A stretch of 64,000 nt of DNA from Escherichia coli (GCF_030013595.1 NZ_CP122772.1), one strand, 5' to 3'. Numbered from the stretch's first letter, positions 32,430 to 39,422 are shown. The notes: a model not told the origin generated them from the letters alone. Made by a program: numbers and translations.

Positions 32430-33835
32430 CTACTTTTTGGAGGTAAATTCAAACCCTAATTTTCCTGTTGCTTTATCAAGCAATTTAACTTTAGCCGAAA
32501 ATTCTTTATTCGTCCTGGAACTAACAAACCCTTTTAACTCTCCTGTAATACCTTTTGTTAGCAAGGTTTCTACTTGCTTGTCAGAAAGCTCCTTGCCAGA
32601 GAAGTTCTTCCAGATTTTAAATTCACATCCTGTACAGAAATAACCTTTTGGCCTGATAGCAATCTGCTTACCACAGGAAGGGCAGGGAGCATTCAGGCGT
32701 TGAGATTGGCCTGCTGGCGCTGCTGCTTCAATCTTCATCTCGCCCAGGTCAACATCTATAATCATGCCGCTCAGTTCACTGTAAAGCTCATTAATAAACT
32801 CTTCAACCGTCAGATCACCATTTTCAATAGCAGCCTGTTTTTCAGCCCATAATGCTGTCATATCTGGATTAACAGCTATATCCGGCAGAGCATCAATAAG
32901 CGCATATCCGGTATCTGTCGGAATGAGTTTTCCTTTTTCCAGCGTGATATAATTTCTCTTCTTCAACGTTTCCAGAATCGCTGCACGGGTAGCTGGTGTA
33001 CCAATGCCGCCATGTTCATCTTTTTTGTCTTTATCTTTATCCTTCAACAATTTTTTAATCGTTGGGTCAGTGACAAAATCCGCGACACGAACAAGCGCAG
33101 CAAGCAAGGAGGCTTCAGTAAATAATGGCGGCGGTGTCGTTTTTTTCTCATTAACTACAACTTCTTTTGTCGTCAGTGTTTCTCCTGTGCGAACTTTACA
33201 GAGTAGTTCAAAAGCGGAATCATCGTTATCTTCTGATTCACCTTCGTCTGTGGTTTCCGCACCAAGAAATGCCTCAAATCCGCTGTCAGTTGTTTTTCTG
33301 GCACGAGCATAGAACGACTCATCACCACACTGAATGGCAACCGATACTTCCTGGTATGCTTTTTCAGGCATGAACTGAACAAGATAGTGTTGTGCGATCG
33401 CAAGGTAAACATTGCGCTCGTCGGTGCTGAGTGCGTTAACATCAGGCACACTGGCAGTCGGGATTATCGCAGTATGCGCAGTCACCTTTGCACTGTTAAA
33501 CGCCTTGCTTTTACGTGCGGAATCAATATCCAGCGACTGAGGAAATACTGATTTCAGGGCATCGATAACCTGCGGCGCTTCGCTGAATTGTTCATCAGAA
33601 AGATATGAGCAATCAGAGCGGTTATAAGTAATCGCTTTATATTTTTCACGTAATTGTTGCGTAATATCCAGCGTTTTTTGTGCCGTCATTTTGAACTTTT
33701 TGTTCATGTATTGCTGGAGTCTGACCAGGTTAAACGGCAACGGCGCAGCCGTTTTTTTATCATCAGTTGCTGCCGCTTCAACGGTAGCCGGTTTTCCTGC
33801 AAGGGATGCAGCCGTTCCGTCTGCCCACGCTTTAT
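32430..33835 (-). pseudogene. topB: DNA topoisomerase III (TopB-like) gene truncated at its 5' end by IS91 copy 2
   Basis: Translation has type IA topoisomerase features (GGIGTPATRAAILETLKKRNYI; C-terminal zinc ribbon CPSCGK...CTGC) but the first ~20 codons of the ORF derive from the IS91 end sequence; the N-terminal part of the enzyme is missing. Confidence 0.7.
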
Positions 33836-33923
33836 CGAGTAGGCAGCCTGGCGGCTGCGGCTTGTCATGGTCTGGAATTACCGTTATAAAAAAAGATAAT
33901 GTCATTGTCTTTCAGGTAGTTAT

Positions 33924-34289
33924 ATGGCCCGTTCAGCTAAACCCCGTAAACGCAAACCCGCACCACAAAGAAGCAAACTTCCCCGCTATGTTGTGAAACT
34001 TCATCCGGATGATTTTTTTGACGAAGAAGACGCTGAAGTTCTGCGCTTTGATAATTTTGACGATGCCGTTGAGTGCTGCGCTGACCTGGGTATTCCGTTC
34101 TTTCTGGATGCAGGAAACAAAAAGCTGGTCTTCTGGTTTGTTCGTGTCGATGACGAAGGGTATCCGGAAATAGCCCGCTGTACGGAGCGGGAGTTTGCAA
34201 CCATTCTTGCCGGTATCAGTGCCGGTGGTATGTACTGCCCGGAATGCGGCACAGTTCACTGGCCGGATGGCGTTACCCCACCCGTCTGA
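33924..34289 (+). CDS. IS91 ORF121 accessory protein
   Basis: Identical to the ORF at 28835..29200. Confidence 0.7.
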   Translation: MARSAKPRKRKPAPQRSKLPRYVVKLHPDDFFDEEDAEVLRFDNFDDAVECCADLGIPFFLDAGNKKLVFWFVRVDDEGYPEIARCTEREFATILAGISAGGMYCPECGTVHWPDGVTPPV

Positions 34290-35476
34290 TGCTTCCCCGT
34301 TTTGCCGATATTTTTCAGCAGGGTAACCGCTGGCTTAACTGGCTGGAGAAACAGCCGGAAGGTTCAGTGCGTCCGGTGGTGACTGAGTCAGTGACAAAAA
34401 TCATGGCATGCGGGACCACGCTGATGGGCTACACGCAATGGTGCTGTTCGTCACCGGACTGTTGCCACACCAAAAAGGTCTGCTTCCGGTGTAAAAGCCG
34501 CTCCTGTCCGCACTGCGGGGTGAAGGCTGGCGCACAGTGGATACAGTATCTGCTGAGCCTGGTCCCCGACTGCCCGTGGCAGCATATTGTGTTCACACTT
34601 CCCTGCCAGTACTGGTCCCTGGTGTTCCACAACCGGTGGTTACTGGCAGAGATGAGCCGCATTGCAGCGGATGTGATACTGGAAATCTGCCATCAGACAG
34701 ATGTGGAGCCGGGGATATTCACGGTGATCCACACATGGGGGCGTGACCAGCAGTGGCATCCGCATATCCATTTATCGACAACTGCCGGTGGTGTGACGTC
34801 GGGCCACACCTGGAAAAATCTTCATTTTTACGCGCGTAAGGTGATGAGCATGTGGCGTTACCGGATAACGCGGCTACTGTCCCGGAAATACCCGGAGCTG
34901 GTAATACCGGATGAACTGGCAGTGGAAGGAAACAGCAAACGGGACTGGAATCGCTTCCTGGACACGCATTACCGCCGCGGCTGGAATGTCAACATATCCA
35001 GGGTGATGGATAACGCCACACATGTGGCGGTGTACTTCGGCTCTTACCTGAAAAAGCCACCGGTGCCGATGAGTCGGCTGGAGCATTATGCCGGTCAGGA
35101 TGAAATCGGTCTGCGTTACAACAGTCACCGTACAAAACGGGAAGAATACCTGTTGATGAGTGGAGATGAGTTCATGGAAAGGTTCTCCTGGCATGTAGCA
35201 GATAAGGGGTTCCGTATGGTGAGGTACTACGGTTTCCTGAGTCCGGTGAAGCGCCGCTTACTGGAAGAAGTTGTGTACGTCATAACGGAGACGGTGAGAA
35301 AAACGGCGATGCAAATCAGGTGGAGAGGGATGTATCAGAGGTTACTGAAGGTTGACCCGCTGAAGTGCATTCTGTGCGGAAGTCAGATGCGTTTTACGGG
35401 GCTGAAGCGGGGTTACCGACTGGCAGAGCTGGTCCTGATGCATGAGCGACTGGCACGACAGCAGGTGTGCGGCTGA
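34244..35476 (+). CDS. tnpA: IS91-family rolling-circle transposase (TnpA)
   Basis: Identical 410-aa translation to copy 1. Confidence 0.85.
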   Translation: MRHSSLAGWRYPTRLMLPRFADIFQQGNRWLNWLEKQPEGSVRPVVTESVTKIMACGTTLMGYTQWCCSSPDCCHTKKVCFRCKSRSCPHCGVKAGAQWIQYLLSLVPDCPWQHIVFTLPCQYWSLVFHNRWLLAEMSRIAADVILEICHQTDVEPGIFTVIHTWGRDQQWHPHIHLSTTAGGVTSGHTWKNLHFYARKVMSMWRYRITRLLSRKYPELVIPDELAVEGNSKRDWNRFLDTHYRRGWNVNISRVMDNATHVAVYFGSYLKKPPVPMSRLEHYAGQDEIGLRYNSHRTKREEYLLMSGDEFMERFSWHVADKGFRMVRYYGFLSPVKRRLLEEVVYVITETVRKTAMQIRWRGMYQRLLKVDPLKCILCGSQMRFTGLKRGYRLAELVLMHERLARQQVCG

Positions 35477-35656
35477 GAGCCGCAGAGGGGAAGTTGCGTC
35501 CATTTTACCGGAAACGGAGCAAAAAACCGCCATTCATACCCTGTATCAATCAGTGTCATCCTGTTTAATAGTCGTTTCCGCTCATATGGTGCACAAGGGG
35601 TGTTGAAGAAACATCCGTTTTGTGGTGCTTTTTTAGTCTTTTGGGGATTTAAATTC

Positions 35657-35773
35657 CTATCGATGAACAGAAAGAACCTGGTAGAAGGTTACATTGGTTT
35701 GCTCATAGCCCCATGATGATACAAAGATATCACCAACAGAGACAGTATCATTTTTAAAAGTTAATACTTTCAT
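35657..35773 (-). pseudogene. 5' fragment of a gene (MKVLTFKNDTVSVGDIF...) truncated by IS91 copy 2
   Basis: ATG at 35773 with GGGAGC RBS behind the duplicated promoter/operator cassette; the frame runs into the IS91 end and stops after 38 codons. Confidence 0.45.
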
Positions 35774-35774
35774 T

Positions 35775-35868
35775 TTTAGCTCCCGCCCAGCTTGGGCTCT
35801 GGATGAAAGAGAATCTGTTTCCCTTTCCTGTGTTTTATTATACCTGCATTTGCAGGTATGGCAAGTTA
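35775..35868 (-). promoter_or_regulatory. Duplicated promoter/operator cassette, copy 1, with inverted repeat atacctgca-tt-tgcaggtat (35841-35858)
   Basis: ~95-bp near-identical repeat of 36686..36782, located ~70 bp upstream of a minus-strand start codon. Confidence 0.5.
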
Positions 35869-36087
35869 TTTTTTTACCAGCCTGTAAGACGGATGCATAT
35901 TTGCTAATAACAATAAATACTGATATTCACCAATAGATAAAGAACGACTGGCCTTACCTGCACTTTCTTTCATCTGCCAGGAATTCAGTTGATAACCAAA
36001 AATATCAGCAGCTTCTTTAAGAGTAAGACCTGCCGCAACCCGCGCATTCTTTACTTCTTCAGGTGTAGGTTTATTCTGCATTTTCAT
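35866..36087 (-). CDS. HTH (XRE-like) DNA-binding protein, 73 aa; possible antitoxin/regulator
   Basis: Contains ...ARVAAGLTLKEAADIFGYQLNSWQMKE..., an HTH-like segment; overlaps the upstream 85-aa ORF by 17 bp. Confidence 0.55.
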   Translation of the reverse strand: MKMQNKPTPEEVKNARVAAGLTLKEAADIFGYQLNSWQMKESAGKASRSLSIGEYQYLLLLANMHPSYRLVKK

Positions 36088-36328
36088 CCCCTTTTGTCAG
36101 ACAATCACACAAAACCCCATTATCCAGAAGCATCAATGATGCCAGGTTGAGTTTTTCGTCCATTATCAATTTTCTTACTGTTTTCCTGCTTTTAGTTTTA
36201 TCAATCGTCTTAACATATTTTAAGGCGTGAAAAACCGTATCCCCATCTTCATCCATCGTTCTGATTACATAGGAGTAATTACCTCTGTTTTTCTTAATTA
36301 TCTTATCTTTATCCATATTATTCCTCAT
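36071..36328 (-). CDS. hypothetical 85-aa protein, co-transcribed upstream partner of the HTH protein (possible toxin)
   Basis: Overlapping gene pair with toxin-first, HTH-second arrangement as in HigB/HigA-type modules; no sequence-level assignment. Confidence 0.4.
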   Translation of the reverse strand: MRNNMDKDKIIKKNRGNYSYVIRTMDEDGDTVFHALKYVKTIDKTKSRKTVRKLIMDEKLNLASLMLLDNGVLCDCLTKGDENAE

Positions 36329-36360
36329 AACTAAAAAAGGGGCTTAATGCCCCTTTTTAT

Positions 36361-36684
36361 CTATAACACGGTATGTAACCCTGTTTCCTGTGTAAATAAA
36401 CGCGCTAACTGATCACAATAGATATTATCGAATCTTGAAATATCTTTAACTTCAACACCACGTACACGAGAAAATTTCACCTGGTACGTATCAGTAAAAT
36501 CCAGTTTAATTTTTACTAAGTTGATGCCTTTCATTGCAAAATTTGACGGCAAACGGAAAGTTAACCCACACTCACCGTTTTCATCAAAGTAAGAAAAACT
36601 TTTAGCACCAGTCATAACAATAAAACGATTACCACCAAGTTGACGTAAAATCTCTGTGGCTACAGATTTAGCATAGTTTTGCAT
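36361..36684 (-). CDS. hypothetical protein (~107 aa from ATG 36684)
   Basis: ATG preceded by GGGAGG; first gene behind promoter/operator cassette copy 2. Confidence 0.5.
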   Translation of the reverse strand: MQNYAKSVATEILRQLGGNRFIVMTGAKSFSYFDENGECGLTFRLPSNFAMKGINLVKIKLDFTDTYQVKFSRVRGVEVKDISRFDNIYCDQLARLFTQETGLHTVL

Positions 36685-36685
36685 T

Positions 36686-36782
36686 TTTAACCTCCCGCCC
36701 ACTTTGGGCTCTGGATGAAAGAGAACCTGTTTCCCTTTCTTGTGTTTTATTATACCTGCATTTGCAGGTATTGCAAATTTTT
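36686..36782 (-). promoter_or_regulatory. Duplicated promoter/operator cassette, copy 2, with inverted repeat atacctgca-tt-tgcaggtat (36753-36770)
   Basis: Near-identical to 35775..35868; inverted repeat ~70 bp upstream of the ATG at 36684. Confidence 0.5.
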
Positions 36783-36829
36783 AATGCTCTCGCTCTGACT
36801 GTAAACAGTCAATCATTTGATGATTAATC

Positions 36830-37111
36830 TTAGCGCAAATCTGCGATCTGATAGACTTCGCTGCTTTCCCTTCTTCCAACGGCAATAACGAGTAAAACGA
36901 CTTTCTCATCAATGACTTGGTATACAAGTCTGTAGCCAGATGCACGAAGTTTGATCTTATAGCGATCAGCATGACCATGTAACCGGGCTGCGGGTACGCG
37001 TGGATTTTCCAGCCGTTCTGCCAGTTTCTTTTTGAATTGTTCACGGATGGTGTGGCCGAGTTTCTGCCATTCCTTCAGTGCTCTACGGTCAAAAGCCAGT
37101 TCATAGGTCAT
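36830..37111 (-). CDS. stbE: RelE/StbE-family toxin
   Basis: 93-aa ORF (MTYELAFDRRALKEWQKL...YRLVYQVIDEKVVLLVIAVGRRE...) typical of the RelE/ParE superfamily; overlaps the upstream antitoxin. Confidence 0.8.
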   Translation of the reverse strand: MTYELAFDRRALKEWQKLGHTIREQFKKKLAERLENPRVPAARLHGHADRYKIKLRASGYRLVYQVIDEKVVLLVIAVGRRESSEVYQIADLR

Positions 37112-37352
37112 CCAGGTTAACCTTCACAATTTCCGGGTTTTTCATGCGCTCATCAGCAACAGCGTTTAACTCAGCATCTTCAGCGAGTTCCCGATAGTAG
37201 GCGTAAAGTTTTGGTGGAACGCAATAGAACGCCGGTTCGTTTCGGTTCAGGATCGCAACAGCGTCCCCTTCACCTTCAGCTACGGTTCCCATAGGATTTT
37301 TTTTCAGGTCAGTAATACTGGCCGCTGTGGTTGTCAGAATTTGATAGCTCAT
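37101..37352 (-). CDS. stbD: Phd/YefM-StbD-family antitoxin
   Basis: 83-aa ORF MSYQILTTTAASITDLKKNPMGTV... preceding and overlapping the toxin gene. Confidence 0.8.
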   Translation of the reverse strand: MSYQILTTTAASITDLKKNPMGTVAEGEGDAVAILNRNEPAFYCVPPKLYAYYRELAEDAELNAVADERMKNPEIVKVNLDDL

Positions 37353-37994
37353 AAGCCCTCCGCTTGTCTCATTGGCATAATAGCATCTTTAAAAGCACTC
37401 TTAAAAGTGCTTATGTTGAGAAAAACATCAGAACAGGTGAGATATGGCTCTTTCCGACATCGCCTTAAAACGCTCTGTAACGCGTTCTGAGCGTTTTTTC
37501 CCGTTTCGTTGTGGTCAGCTACGGTTTAACGGTTTTTAACGCCGCTCAACGCTTTTTAGCGGCCTTGTTGCTGTGATCTGTTGCCATGATCCGGATAGGA
37601 GTTCAATCTTGATCAAAATTTCCTCAAGGCAACGACTGTTTTGTAAATACCCTCTAAAACGCGCTGTATCGCATTCTGAGCGATTTTTTCGATTTCGCAT
37701 GGTTTCACCATGGTTGTATCGAACGAAGCGGCAGAAAGCGATTCAGGGCTTCTCAGTGAAAGATCCAAAAAGGATCAATCAACGGATCGTATGAGCTGAA
37801 CTCTTCTGGTTTTGAGAAAGGAGACACCGCTCGCCGCAGCCGAACGACCGAGTGTAGCGAGTTAGTGAGCGAGGAAGCGGAATAGCACAGGGATTACATT
37901 AGGCACTTACGCACAGTGGTCAAAATATGAGCATATTGTTTTTATGTGTGGTTGTCTTGGTTCAGAGTGATCTGTCCTCCGGGTTTACGCAAAG

Positions 37995-38042
37995 TTATCC
38001 ACAGGCGCTGTGAATTTTTTGTTTTGAGCAGAGTTATCCACA
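37995..38042 (+). promoter_or_regulatory. Two DnaA boxes (TTATCCACA at 37995-38003 and 38034-38042) of the iteron origin
   Basis: Exact consensus 9-mers 40 bp apart, upstream of an AT-rich GATC cluster and the iterons. Confidence 0.6.
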
Positions 38043-38084
38043 GATTTTTTGTGTTTTTTTGCTTATTAAACTTCTTGTTTTTAA

Positions 38085-38121: not shown

Positions 38122-38213
38122 TTTAACTTACTTTAACTTATTCTGCAAACATTGTGCCAGCTTTTTTATCAATAATTTCATTAAGATAGGTGTTGTTTTT
38201 TGTCGCCTCAAAA

Positions 38214-38334
38214 TGAAAGGTGGATGGGTACGCACTGAAAGGTGGATAGGTACGCACTGTAATTTTCATGAAAGGTGGATGGCTGCGCACTGAAAGGTGG
38301 ATGGGTACGCACTGAAAGGTGGATGGGTACGCAT
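38214..38334 (+). repeat. Iteron array: five 22-bp direct repeats (tgaaaggtggatgggtacgcac) plus degenerate copies at ~38418-38441 and ~38491-38510
   Basis: Repeats at 38214, 38236, 38269, 38291 and 38313 (one 11-bp spacer); degenerate copies sit in the rep promoter region. Confidence 0.8.
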
Positions 38335-38585
38335 TTTTCTGTTTTTATTCAGATATTCGTATCTTTGTATCTTCATTTCTTTAGTTCTTTATAGTGCTCT
38401 AATTTAACGTATGACGTTAAAAGGTGGATACCTGCGCATTTCTATCATATTGAATATAAATGATAAAAATTCTTTCATGTGATCAGTGTTTTGGTGGAAA
38501 TACATAAGGTGGATAAACCACTTTACATATTTCCGCCTTTGTGGTTATGATTTCACCATCAGAACTTAAAAACCACAGGTAATGT

Positions 38586-39422
38586 ATGAACTTACTGAGC
38601 GTTACAAAGAAAACAAAAATTCGCCACAGAAATGAAATTAACAGCACATTCTCATCGTTGCCTTTGTCTGCCAGAAGAATTTTGTTTATGGCTATGGCGC
38701 AGATTGATTCACGTGAAGAGTTATCTGAGGGGGCAACCTTTCGTATTACGGCTCGGGAATATGCATTTATCGCTGATATTGATGTAACAGGTGCTTACCG
38801 GCAGTTGAAAGAGGGGGCAGAAGAACTTCAGGCCAGTGTTATTCGCATTCCTCGAAATCAACTTCTCACACCTCAGGGCAATCAAAGCTCTGGACATACG
38901 AAGAAGAGAGGTAAATTACCTTCTGATGCAGTCAGGCTTATGAACCTGACTGCGTTTTGTGATTATGTTGAAAGTGAAGGATATATTGATATTGCTTTTT
39001 CACATGTCATTGAGCCATATATCACGATGTTAAAGGATTCTTACACTACTCAGGTTTTGATATCGTCTGTAAGACTCGCTGATCAAAATTCAAATATGCT
39101 TTATCAGTTTATCAGGAAACAATACAGCAGTGGTAAAAAGACATTTTTCGACATTGAAGTAGATGTATTAAAGGATGAACTTGAATTATTCAGAATAGAT
39201 AATGGCGAAAAAGTTTACCTTTATCAGAATTTTAAGGATTTTAATAAGGTTTTTCTGCAAAAAAATATTGAAAAAATAAATCAATATACAGAGATTAATC
39301 ATCTCGAAGTTAAAATCGTTGAGAGAGTCGCAAGAAGAGCATCAAAGCTAAGGTTTTCTTATAAAATAGATAAAGAAAGTGAGGGCTTAGATATCAGAAT
39401 ACCATACGGTTTCAGAGGATAA
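38586..39422 (+). CDS. rep: Rep_3-family iteron-binding replication initiator (RepE/pi-like)
   Basis: 278-aa ORF immediately downstream of the iterons; N-terminal region resembles RepE-type initiators (LSARRILFMAMAQIDS vs RepE LSRDQKRMLYLFVDQI). Confidence 0.75.
   Translation: MNLLSVTKKTKIRHRNEINSTFSSLPLSARRILFMAMAQIDSREELSEGATFRITAREYAFIADIDVTGAYRQLKEGAEELQASVIRIPRNQLLTPQGNQSSGHTKKRGKLPSDAVRLMNLTAFCDYVESEGYIDIAFSHVIEPYITMLKDSYTTQVLISSVRLADQNSNMLYQFIRKQYSSGKKTFFDIEVDVLKDELELFRIDNGEKVYLYQNFKDFNKVFLQKNIEKINQYTEINHLEVKIVERVARRASKLRFSYKIDKESEGLDIRIPYGFRG

Follow-up and report, generated by a model that had tools for sequence, protein, structure and literature searches.

Which regulator acts on a promoter cassette that occurs twice in an IncX1 plasmid backbone, and what would such an arrangement be for? 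The question is raised by a stretch of Escherichia coli DNA of 64,000 nucleotides (GCF_030013595.1, NZ_CP122772.1; the whole stretch is referred to as the window), in which two near-identical segments, each with a perfect inverted repeat, lie ahead of small genes on the minus strand. A first-pass annotation, made from the sequence alone, had proposed that a nearby helix-turn-helix (HTH) protein binds the palindrome and regulates its own synthesis, as in toxin-antitoxin (TA) pairs, or else that the repeats are single-strand promoters of the kind found in plasmid leading regions. Our analysis leads us to favor, as the likely explanation, an autorepressor circuit of the Aca type, acting on repeated promoter cassettes that are laid out like the CUP elements of IncN plasmids.

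A repeat search of the window confirmed the direct repeat and corrected its bounds to 35773-35870 (copy 1) and 36685-36782 (copy 2); that is, two units of 98 nt each, 91% identical and 912 bp apart. Their resemblance breaks off exactly at the start codons, and the DNA that flanks the two copies is unrelated. Both include an exact 20-nt palindrome, ATACCTGCATTTGCAGGTAT, with arms ATACCTGCA-nn-TGCAGGTAT. With up to three mismatches allowed, the whole 64-kb window contains no further ATACCTGCATTTGCAGGTAT site beyond the two cassettes, a count that was equalled in 0 of 100 shuffles. Read on the minus strand, each copy consists of a -35 element, a 16-nt spacer, TATAAT, a leader of about 60 nt, GGGAGG or GGGAGC, and ATG. 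The promoter scan predicts near-consensus sigma-70 promoters in both, namely TTGCAA-16-TATAAT in copy 2 (10 of the 12 consensus positions) and TTGCCA-16-TATAAT in copy 1 (11 of 12). The palindrome takes up the entire spacer between -35 and -10 and extends into the -10 element, of which it covers the first three bases (TAT). This agrees with the earlier view of each copy as a putative promoter/operator unit. The distance from palindrome to start codon, previously put at about 70 bp, is 68 nt in both copies, and the ribosome-binding site (RBS), of the GGGAG type as noted before, lies 6-7 nt 5' of the ATG. Nine-mers that resemble ATACCTGCA with at most one mismatch are in excess in the window (31 versus 13.7 expected, mostly ATACCGGCA or ATACCCGCA), which is probably a composition effect. 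Outside the cassettes no palindromic pairing of such half-sites was found in the window, and lone half-sites, being unpaired, were not counted as sites.

Between the two cassettes lie two overlapping genes, for an 81-residue partner protein and a 71-residue HTH protein. A profile built from nine members of the HTH family was compared with the PDB, and matched the DNA-binding domain of MqsA (E 7e-6), Aca10 (7XI5; E 9.4e-6 over 54 residues) and Aca3 (E 6e-4); with the single sequence as query, Aca10 is the best match (E 0.023). Equivalents of Aca10 residues Q37, R44 (DNA contact) and G49 (dimer interface) are present in the IncX1 protein.

Comparison loci were obtained with the HTH protein as BLAST probe, and comprise IncX3, IncX4 and IncX5 plasmids, an IncX-like one, two IncI2 types, an F-like Citrobacter plasmid, pRSE39, a 27-kb MOBC plasmid and an IncF mosaic. 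In 11 of 11 lineages with the partner and HTH pair, two to four cassettes of the same build are present, upstream of cargo genes that differ; these include genes for a J-domain protein, for a 180-aa protein, and for homologues of the 107-aa and 109-aa proteins encoded directly downstream of the IncX1 cassettes. The HTH gene closes a cassette-headed operon in most relatives (IncX3, IncX4, IncX5, IncI2). When the cassette alone was used as BLAST query, full-length relatives were found in other backbones at 76-86% identity, together with about 500 IncI1/IncK-type records that match the leader part only. Palindrome and HTH are both absent from the IncI1 and IncK leading regions, which do have the leader.

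The operators of these plasmids fall into six classes, all of 20 bp, all located in the promoter spacer and all with ATA…TAT ends, while the inner six bases vary jointly on both arms. The class of the window, ATACCTGCA-nn-TGCAGGTAT, occurs in IncX1 and in three other backbones. The remaining classes are (A/T)TACCATCA-nn-TGATGGTAT in IncX3 and IncX5 (arms TACCATCA/TGATGGTA), ATACGACTT-aa-AGGTCGTAT in IncX4, ATACCGCAC-nn-GTGCGGTAT in the IncX-like Enterobacter plasmid, ATACATCTA-aa-TAGATGTAT in IncI2, and ATAGGTCAG-nn-CTGACCTAT in IncI2 and the IncF mosaic. An alignment of the HTH proteins shows that the helix-3 region and the loop that follows it hardly vary among the proteins of one operator class, even when their backbones are unrelated, and differ between classes. 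Because operator class and HTH vary together, because cassettes and HTH gene co-occur in all 11 lineages, and because the protein is homologous to Aca10 and the site has the format of the Aca10 site, we infer that the HTH protein is the repressor of both cassettes. That it binds the palindrome, as first suggested, is very probable; that it also autoregulates is probable.

In its components, the closest known system is Aca10 with its operator (IR2). Aca10 is a dimeric repressor of 65 residues, whose minimal site in the acrIC7-acrIC6-aca10 promoter of Pseudomonas citronellolis was mapped by electrophoretic mobility shift assay to ATACGCTCA-t-TGAGCGTAT (PMC9410881). The plasmid protein is likewise a small four-helix HTH of the XRE type (profile E 9e-6, with the three equivalent residues given above); the operators, compared by presence and format, share the pattern ATAC-N5-(1-2 nt)-N5-GTAT inside a promoter; and in both cases the gene for the repressor comes last, at the 3' side of its own operon and behind small, fast-evolving genes. 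The differences are that the plasmid site is 20 bp long (9+2+9), whereas that of Aca10 is 19 bp (9+1+9), that each plasmid element has two to four operator-bearing promoters rather than one, that the plasmid system belongs to the leading region of enterobacterial conjugative plasmids, and that no known anti-CRISPR gene is found among those for the 107-, 109- and 81-aa proteins. Since association with an anti-CRISPR is what defines an Aca protein, we refer to the HTH protein as Aca10-like and not as a demonstrated Aca.

The system closest in design is the regulon that CUP elements control in IncN plasmids. The CUP (conserved upstream) elements of pKM101/R46 are controlled by ArdK and head operons of the leading region (Delver & Belogurov 1997; described in PMC5371602 and PMC6289460). 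As in IncN, repeated promoter/operator/leader units precede several leading-region operons of the same direction, each unit has a site for a plasmid repressor, and the design would fit a burst of expression on entry. The regulators differ: ArdK and ArdR are absent, the repressor is unrelated to them, and R46 lacks this HTH. With R46 ArdK and ArdR as queries, tblastn found no match either in the window or in the module loci; a blastn comparison of the R46 CUP with the IncX1 cassette of the window (about 98 bp) gave no significant match, and the leader model described below scores E 0.49 at best on the R46 CUP. The cassettes of IncI2 and IncX4 have a GC-rich upstream extension of about 300 nt, which does align with the distal part of the R46 CUP (about 60% identity, E 3e-7 to 6e-3). 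This GC-rich repeat precedes each IncI2 and IncX4 cassette (L015:4370-4745, L013, L010), folds as single-stranded DNA (ssDNA) with -80 kcal/mol, far better than shuffled sequences do (z -4.4), leaves the -35 and -10 elements outside its long helix, and is possibly a priming or ssDNA signal.

The circuit we propose would operate as follows. Each 98-bp copy would be a portable minus-strand expression cassette, with a sigma-70 promoter, a palindrome in the spacer, a two-hairpin leader and a strong RBS. A dimer of the 71-aa Aca10-like protein on the palindrome would block RNA polymerase at both promoters. The genes for the HTH protein and its partner lie downstream of the cargo gene of the first cassette, behind a terminator that would have to be read through; the repressor would therefore be made by the operon that it represses, i.e., it would exert negative feedback. 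On entry into a cell devoid of repressor, both promoters would fire hard, and would be turned off as the repressor accumulates. This burst logic would be the same as in anti-CRISPR/Aca operons and in the CUP/ArdK regulon of IncN. In the window, the second cassette (copy 1) would now drive nothing but a stump of 37 codons, because an IS91-family element has removed the rest of the second operon.

Several observations weigh against this circuit. Symmetric changes in the two arms are also expected of a conserved nucleic-acid hairpin, and the palindrome does fold (-10.9 kcal/mol), with the plus strand flagged as terminator-like. The partner/HTH pair of IncX1 is cut off from the first cargo gene by a strong terminator, and the promoter scan of the window found no promoter of the pair's own, so that expression of the repressor lacks an obvious route. 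None of the cargo genes matches a known anti-defense protein in Pfam, NCBIfam, PHROGs or the PDB. The set of operator classes covers 11 lineages picked from BLAST lists and is not a systematic census. Lastly, the pairwise similarity to Aca10 is weak (the E value of 0.023 given above), and every NCBIfam match to MqsA falls under the curated cut-off.

The matches to MqsA bring up the TA pair of the first-pass annotation, that is, the possibility that the overlapping genes (85 and 73 codons as first called, 81 and 71 as annotated) form a type II pair in reverse order, similar to MqsRA or HigBA, with the palindrome as antitoxin operator. Two small genes do overlap, relE and relB are immediate neighbors, one of the IncI2 homologues carries the annotation 'antitoxin Xre-like HTH', and among solved homologues the MqsA DNA-binding domain has the best score for the HTH family (E 7e-6). 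The MqsA dimer binds a palindrome built on ACCT…AGGT and bends the DNA. The 71-aa protein, however, aligns only to MqsA profile positions ~63-124, i.e., it consists of the DNA-binding domain alone, and the N-terminal zinc domain that binds the toxin is missing. No MqsR-like partner accompanies it, and the half-site spacing is another one. The partner has no match in Pfam, NCBIfam or the PDB, and resembles no toxin by sequence or by its confidently predicted fold. The palindrome is repeated two to four times before unrelated cargo genes rather than standing directly before the pair, which is always found within leading-region operons. We therefore give the TA interpretation little chance of being correct. 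The position of the 81-aa gene is more reminiscent of the small variable genes found ahead of aca genes, and makes its product a candidate anti-defense protein.

The folding of the palindrome could also mean that its function is structural, namely to terminate read-through or antisense transcripts or to insulate against them, the two copies being a promoter duplication generated by recombination. The fold is stable, the plus-strand scan calls copy 1 terminator-like (a hairpin, then a T-run), and the symmetric arm changes would fit selection on structure. Against this, the length of 20 bp, the ATA…TAT ends and the exact position in the spacer are fixed in all six classes, and the near-invariance within a class, among unrelated backbones and among copies, exceeds what any purely structural constraint would impose. 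Moreover, operator classes track the recognition region of the HTH, the mapped Aca10 site is of the same format, and the hairpin, read on the gene strand, has no U-run behind it. It thus seems very unlikely that the palindrome acts as a hairpin only. That the repeats are instead single-strand promoters of the Frpo/ssi type, or priming signals, used on the transferred strand before the complementary strand is made is highly improbable: cassettes and Frpo/ssi (F, IncI1) do share a neighborhood, a gene orientation (toward oriT) and a presumed early expression after transfer, new classes of ssDNA promoters are still emerging in IncI1 leading regions (PMC12672017), and the region folds better as ssDNA than shuffled sequences (z -2.5 and -1.9), but the 261-nt DNA folds around each copy show no structures other than three local hairpins, all of them short (the palindrome, HP1 and HP2), a duplex of the -35 and -10 elements is not restored by any long hairpin, the spacer and part of the -10 element would be taken up into the palindrome hairpin, the element measures about 100 nt as opposed to the long Frpo-type hairpins, and the cassette already has a conventional duplex promoter close to consensus.

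Returning to the repressor circuit, the second conserved part of the cassette is its leader. Each of the two leaders of the window folds into a pair of hairpins with a single nucleotide between them, namely HP1 (9 bp) and HP2 (5 bp, extended by a short outer helix that reaches the Shine-Dalgarno sequence). All 26 distinct leaders from 17 loci fold independently into the same architecture, and pairing is kept among the HP2 variants (GCCCA/TGGGC, GCCCC/GGGGC, GCCC/GGGC, GTCC/GGAC, GCGCC/GGCGC, GCCGC/GCGGC and GCCCG/CGGGC). A covariance model built on these leaders picks out, within the window, the two cassettes and nothing else; in the loci it matches 34 more significant sites, three of which are not in the seed. 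In the covariance-model alignment, seven of the nine HP1 pairs are changed on both sides, and the covariation score (0.240) is greater than those of all 500 shuffles and all slid controls. HP2 is out of register in the covariance-model realignment, where 68% of its cells are paired; its support, which comes from per-sequence folds and from a best-hairpin table that is biased toward finding a hairpin, is weaker than that for HP1. RNAalifold, applied to a MAFFT alignment, recovered part of HP1 only, because loop and linker lengths differ. Neither cassette matches an Rfam family (cmscan of 35500-37500, E up to 10).

The leader is found with other promoters in the leading regions of IncI1, IncK and IncL/M (pOXA-48-type) plasmids, and is therefore a module independent of the repressor. 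In the pOXA-48-type plasmids and their relatives (L011:5743-6222, L014:3728-4225), the HTH domain forms the C-terminal part of a protein of 159-165 aa, and loci of this type have several leader copies without the spacer palindrome. The notion that this longer protein is a fusion of partner and HTH was rejected, as its N-terminus is unrelated to the 81-aa partner (hhalign probability 0.1%).

The simplest guess is that the leader provides a 5'-terminal, mRNA-stabilizing hairpin and a standardized ribosome-binding context; that it controls read-through is speculation. A precedent for RNA binding is Aca2, whose targets are promoter DNA as well as stem-loops in the leader of acr mRNA (Birkholz et al. 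2024, as cited in PMC12248084). The likeness consists in an operon with an Aca-type HTH and in mRNA stem-loops conserved beside the ribosome-binding site. Here, however, the leader hairpins are unlike the operator in sequence, and control of the leader by the HTH protein is not indicated, because the same leader occurs in plasmids without it. Tentatively, one may go further and suppose that the leader (HP1-CC-HP2-GGAG) is an undescribed cis-acting RNA, or a DNA structure of the transferred strand, common to IncX, IncI1, IncK, IncI2 and IncL/M plasmids regardless of promoter and repressor, and at the same time that the Aca10-like repressor marks anti-defense genes; we regard this joint proposal as possible and, on balance, doubtful. 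The leader would then have a specific role, for instance in 5'-end protection, in the tuning of translation or in read-through of the terminators before repressor genes, and the anti-defense candidates would be the 81-aa partner and the 107-aa, 109-aa and J-domain proteins.

BLAST searches identify the region as IncX1 backbone, present at ≥99% identity in hundreds of plasmids. pDKX1-TEM-52, an intact IncX1 plasmid, has a second operon with genes of 109, 59, 65 and 90 aa, which ends at the oriT region, beside the relaxase accessory and relaxase genes. In intact plasmids the module adjoins oriT and the relaxase genes, with its own genes directed toward oriT, in IncX1, IncX3, IncX5, the IncX-like Enterobacter plasmid and the F-like Citrobacter plasmid. 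It is on the side of oriT opposite the relaxase, in the same orientation as ardA and psiB in IncI1, and leading-region genes are generally oriented toward oriT (PMC11541004). From general knowledge of relaxase operons, this side presumably enters the recipient first. The module thus sits in the plasmid leading region, as had been surmised from the window, and as its place beside oriT in intact IncX1, IncX3 and F-like Citrobacter plasmids bears out.

The last gene of the operon under the second cassette in intact IncX plasmids encodes a homologue of VirBR, the activator of the IncX3 transfer genes (PMC11214620). In IncX1 this is the 90-aa protein (L001:2078-2350), which shares 74% identity with its IncX3 counterpart (L009:5911-6168); the latter has the length and the residues R20, R42 and R67 reported for VirBR. 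Within the coding region of the VirBR homologue, a piece of 26-31 nt of the R46 CUP, with the hairpin ATGCCC-tgac-GGGCAT, occurs in inverted orientation at 93-96% identity (L001:2111-2141 in IncX1, L009:6125-6150 in IncX3, L012:5135-5160 in IncX5).

If the circuit is as we propose, the first genes expressed after transfer would be gated by a repressor of the Aca type that comes in six or more operator specificities, and several small proteins would be flagged as candidates for anti-defense or establishment functions, by guilt-by-association as for many anti-CRISPRs. The control of establishment and that of conjugation may then be linked, because the second cassette heads an operon that ends in virBR. 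The distinct operator classes would suggest that co-resident plasmids avoid cross-repression, in the manner of phage immunity groups. The main plasmid carriers of blaNDM-5 and mcr-1 are of the types IncX3, IncX4 and IncI2, and the relatives of all three types have the module next to oriT. In a literature search of incomplete coverage, no paper came up that deals, for IncX or IncI2 plasmids, with this repressor, its operators or the leader; operator sequences and protein accessions gave nothing, and the papers on IncX regulation (VirBR, PrfaH/H-NS, Sfx) make no mention of this HTH. The conserved leader is the part that could prove more novel.

The features of the locus are collected in Table 1. 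On the minus strand, their order is relB/relE, cassette copy 2, the 107-aa gene, a terminator-like hairpin, the 81-aa/HTH pair, cassette copy 1, 37 codons, and the IS91-family element. This is the gene layout described at first, with a 107-aa ORF, an overlapping pair and an open reading frame (ORF) of 38 codons at 35773-35657. RefSeq starts the two ORFs of the pair at internal ATGs, so that the pair spans 36316-35866. The 107-aa protein has no match in Pfam, NCBIfam or the PDB, and in PHROGs matches only family 9437, to which no function is assigned; the 109-aa protein, intact in pDKX1-TEM-52, has none in Pfam, NCBIfam or the PDB either, and matches only PHROGs of unknown function. The hairpin downstream of the 107-aa gene (-16.7 kcal/mol, z -3.6) was read directly from the sequence, and is not in the list of the consensus scan.

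Table 1. Coordinates of the cassettes, genes and neighboring features in the window
Feature	Coordinates	Strand	Basis or remark
Cassette copy 2 (predicted promoter, operator, leader, RBS), 5' of 107-aa gene	36685..36782	-	direct repeat, sequence
Copy 2 -35, TTGCAA	36771..36776	-	promoter scan
Copy 2 operator palindrome, ATACCTGCA-aa-TGCAGGTAT	36752..36771	-	repeat/motif search, operator classes, Aca10 site format
Copy 2 -10, TATAAT	36749..36754	-	promoter scan
Copy 2 HP1, GAAAGGGAA-acagg-TTCTCTTTC, a few nt past the predicted transcription start	36717..36739	-	RNA fold
Copy 2 HP2, GCCCA-aag-TGGGC, one nt upstream of Shine-Dalgarno	36697..36709	-	RNA fold
Copy 2 Shine-Dalgarno, GGGAGG; ATG at 36684	36691..36696	-	sequence
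Cassette copy 1	35773..35870	-	direct repeat, palindrome search, promoter scan, RNA fold, sequence
Copy 1 -35, TTGCCA	35859-35864	-	promoter scan
Copy 1 operator	35840-35859	-	palindrome search
Copy 1 -10, TATAAT	35837-35842	-	promoter scan
Copy 1 HP1	35805-35827	-	RNA fold
Copy 1 HP2	35785-35797	-	RNA fold
Copy 1 Shine-Dalgarno; ATG 35771-35773	35780-35784	-	
107-aa cargo gene	36361..36684	-	PHROG 9437
Intrinsic-terminator-like hairpin and U-run, between 107-aa and partner genes	36331..36358	-	RNA fold
81-aa partner gene (85 aa from ATG 36328)	36071..36316	-	3' end overlaps HTH gene
71-aa Aca10/MqsA-like HTH gene (73 aa from 36087), putative repressor of both cassettes	35866..36081	-	
Start of 109-aa cargo gene, 37 codons, cut by IS91-family element	35664..35773	-	breakpoint versus pDKX1-TEM-52, GAAC target
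IS91-family element	34244..35663	+	transposase ORF 34244-35476
relB/relE TA pair, directly upstream of cassette copy 2	37352-36830	-	own promoter-like site 37377-37404

The gene behind cassette copy 1 had been described as cut by IS91, and the comparison with pDKX1-TEM-52 bears this out. The first 37 codons of the 38-codon ORF are those of the intact 109-aa gene, homology stops at 35664, and the junction (35663/35664) lies on a GAAC target. The window lacks the remaining genes of the second operon, and with them the VirBR homologue. Just past the IS91-family element, a minus-strand ORF of 491 aa (32430-33905) has a translation that, on visual inspection, resembles a topoisomerase III-type protein. 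In related virulence plasmids of pig enterotoxigenic E. coli (F18 fimbriae, STa/STb toxins), this truncated form of the IncX1 module stands next to four IS91 copies in tandem, and the IncX1 fragment survives there as part of a mosaic (e.g., NZ_MG904998.1, 12839-19877; L019). On the other side of the module, two more short direct repeats lie between relB and the IncX1 replicon, at 37466-37508/37655-37697 (43 nt, 84%) and at 37984-38059 (37 nt, 73%). The replicon itself (38191-38441) has six 22-bp iterons, AAAGGTGGATGGGTACGCACTG, upstream of the gene for a 278-aa replication initiator (38586-39422), and its outlying iteron (38420-38441) contains ATACCTGCG, which differs from the operator half-site by one mismatch.

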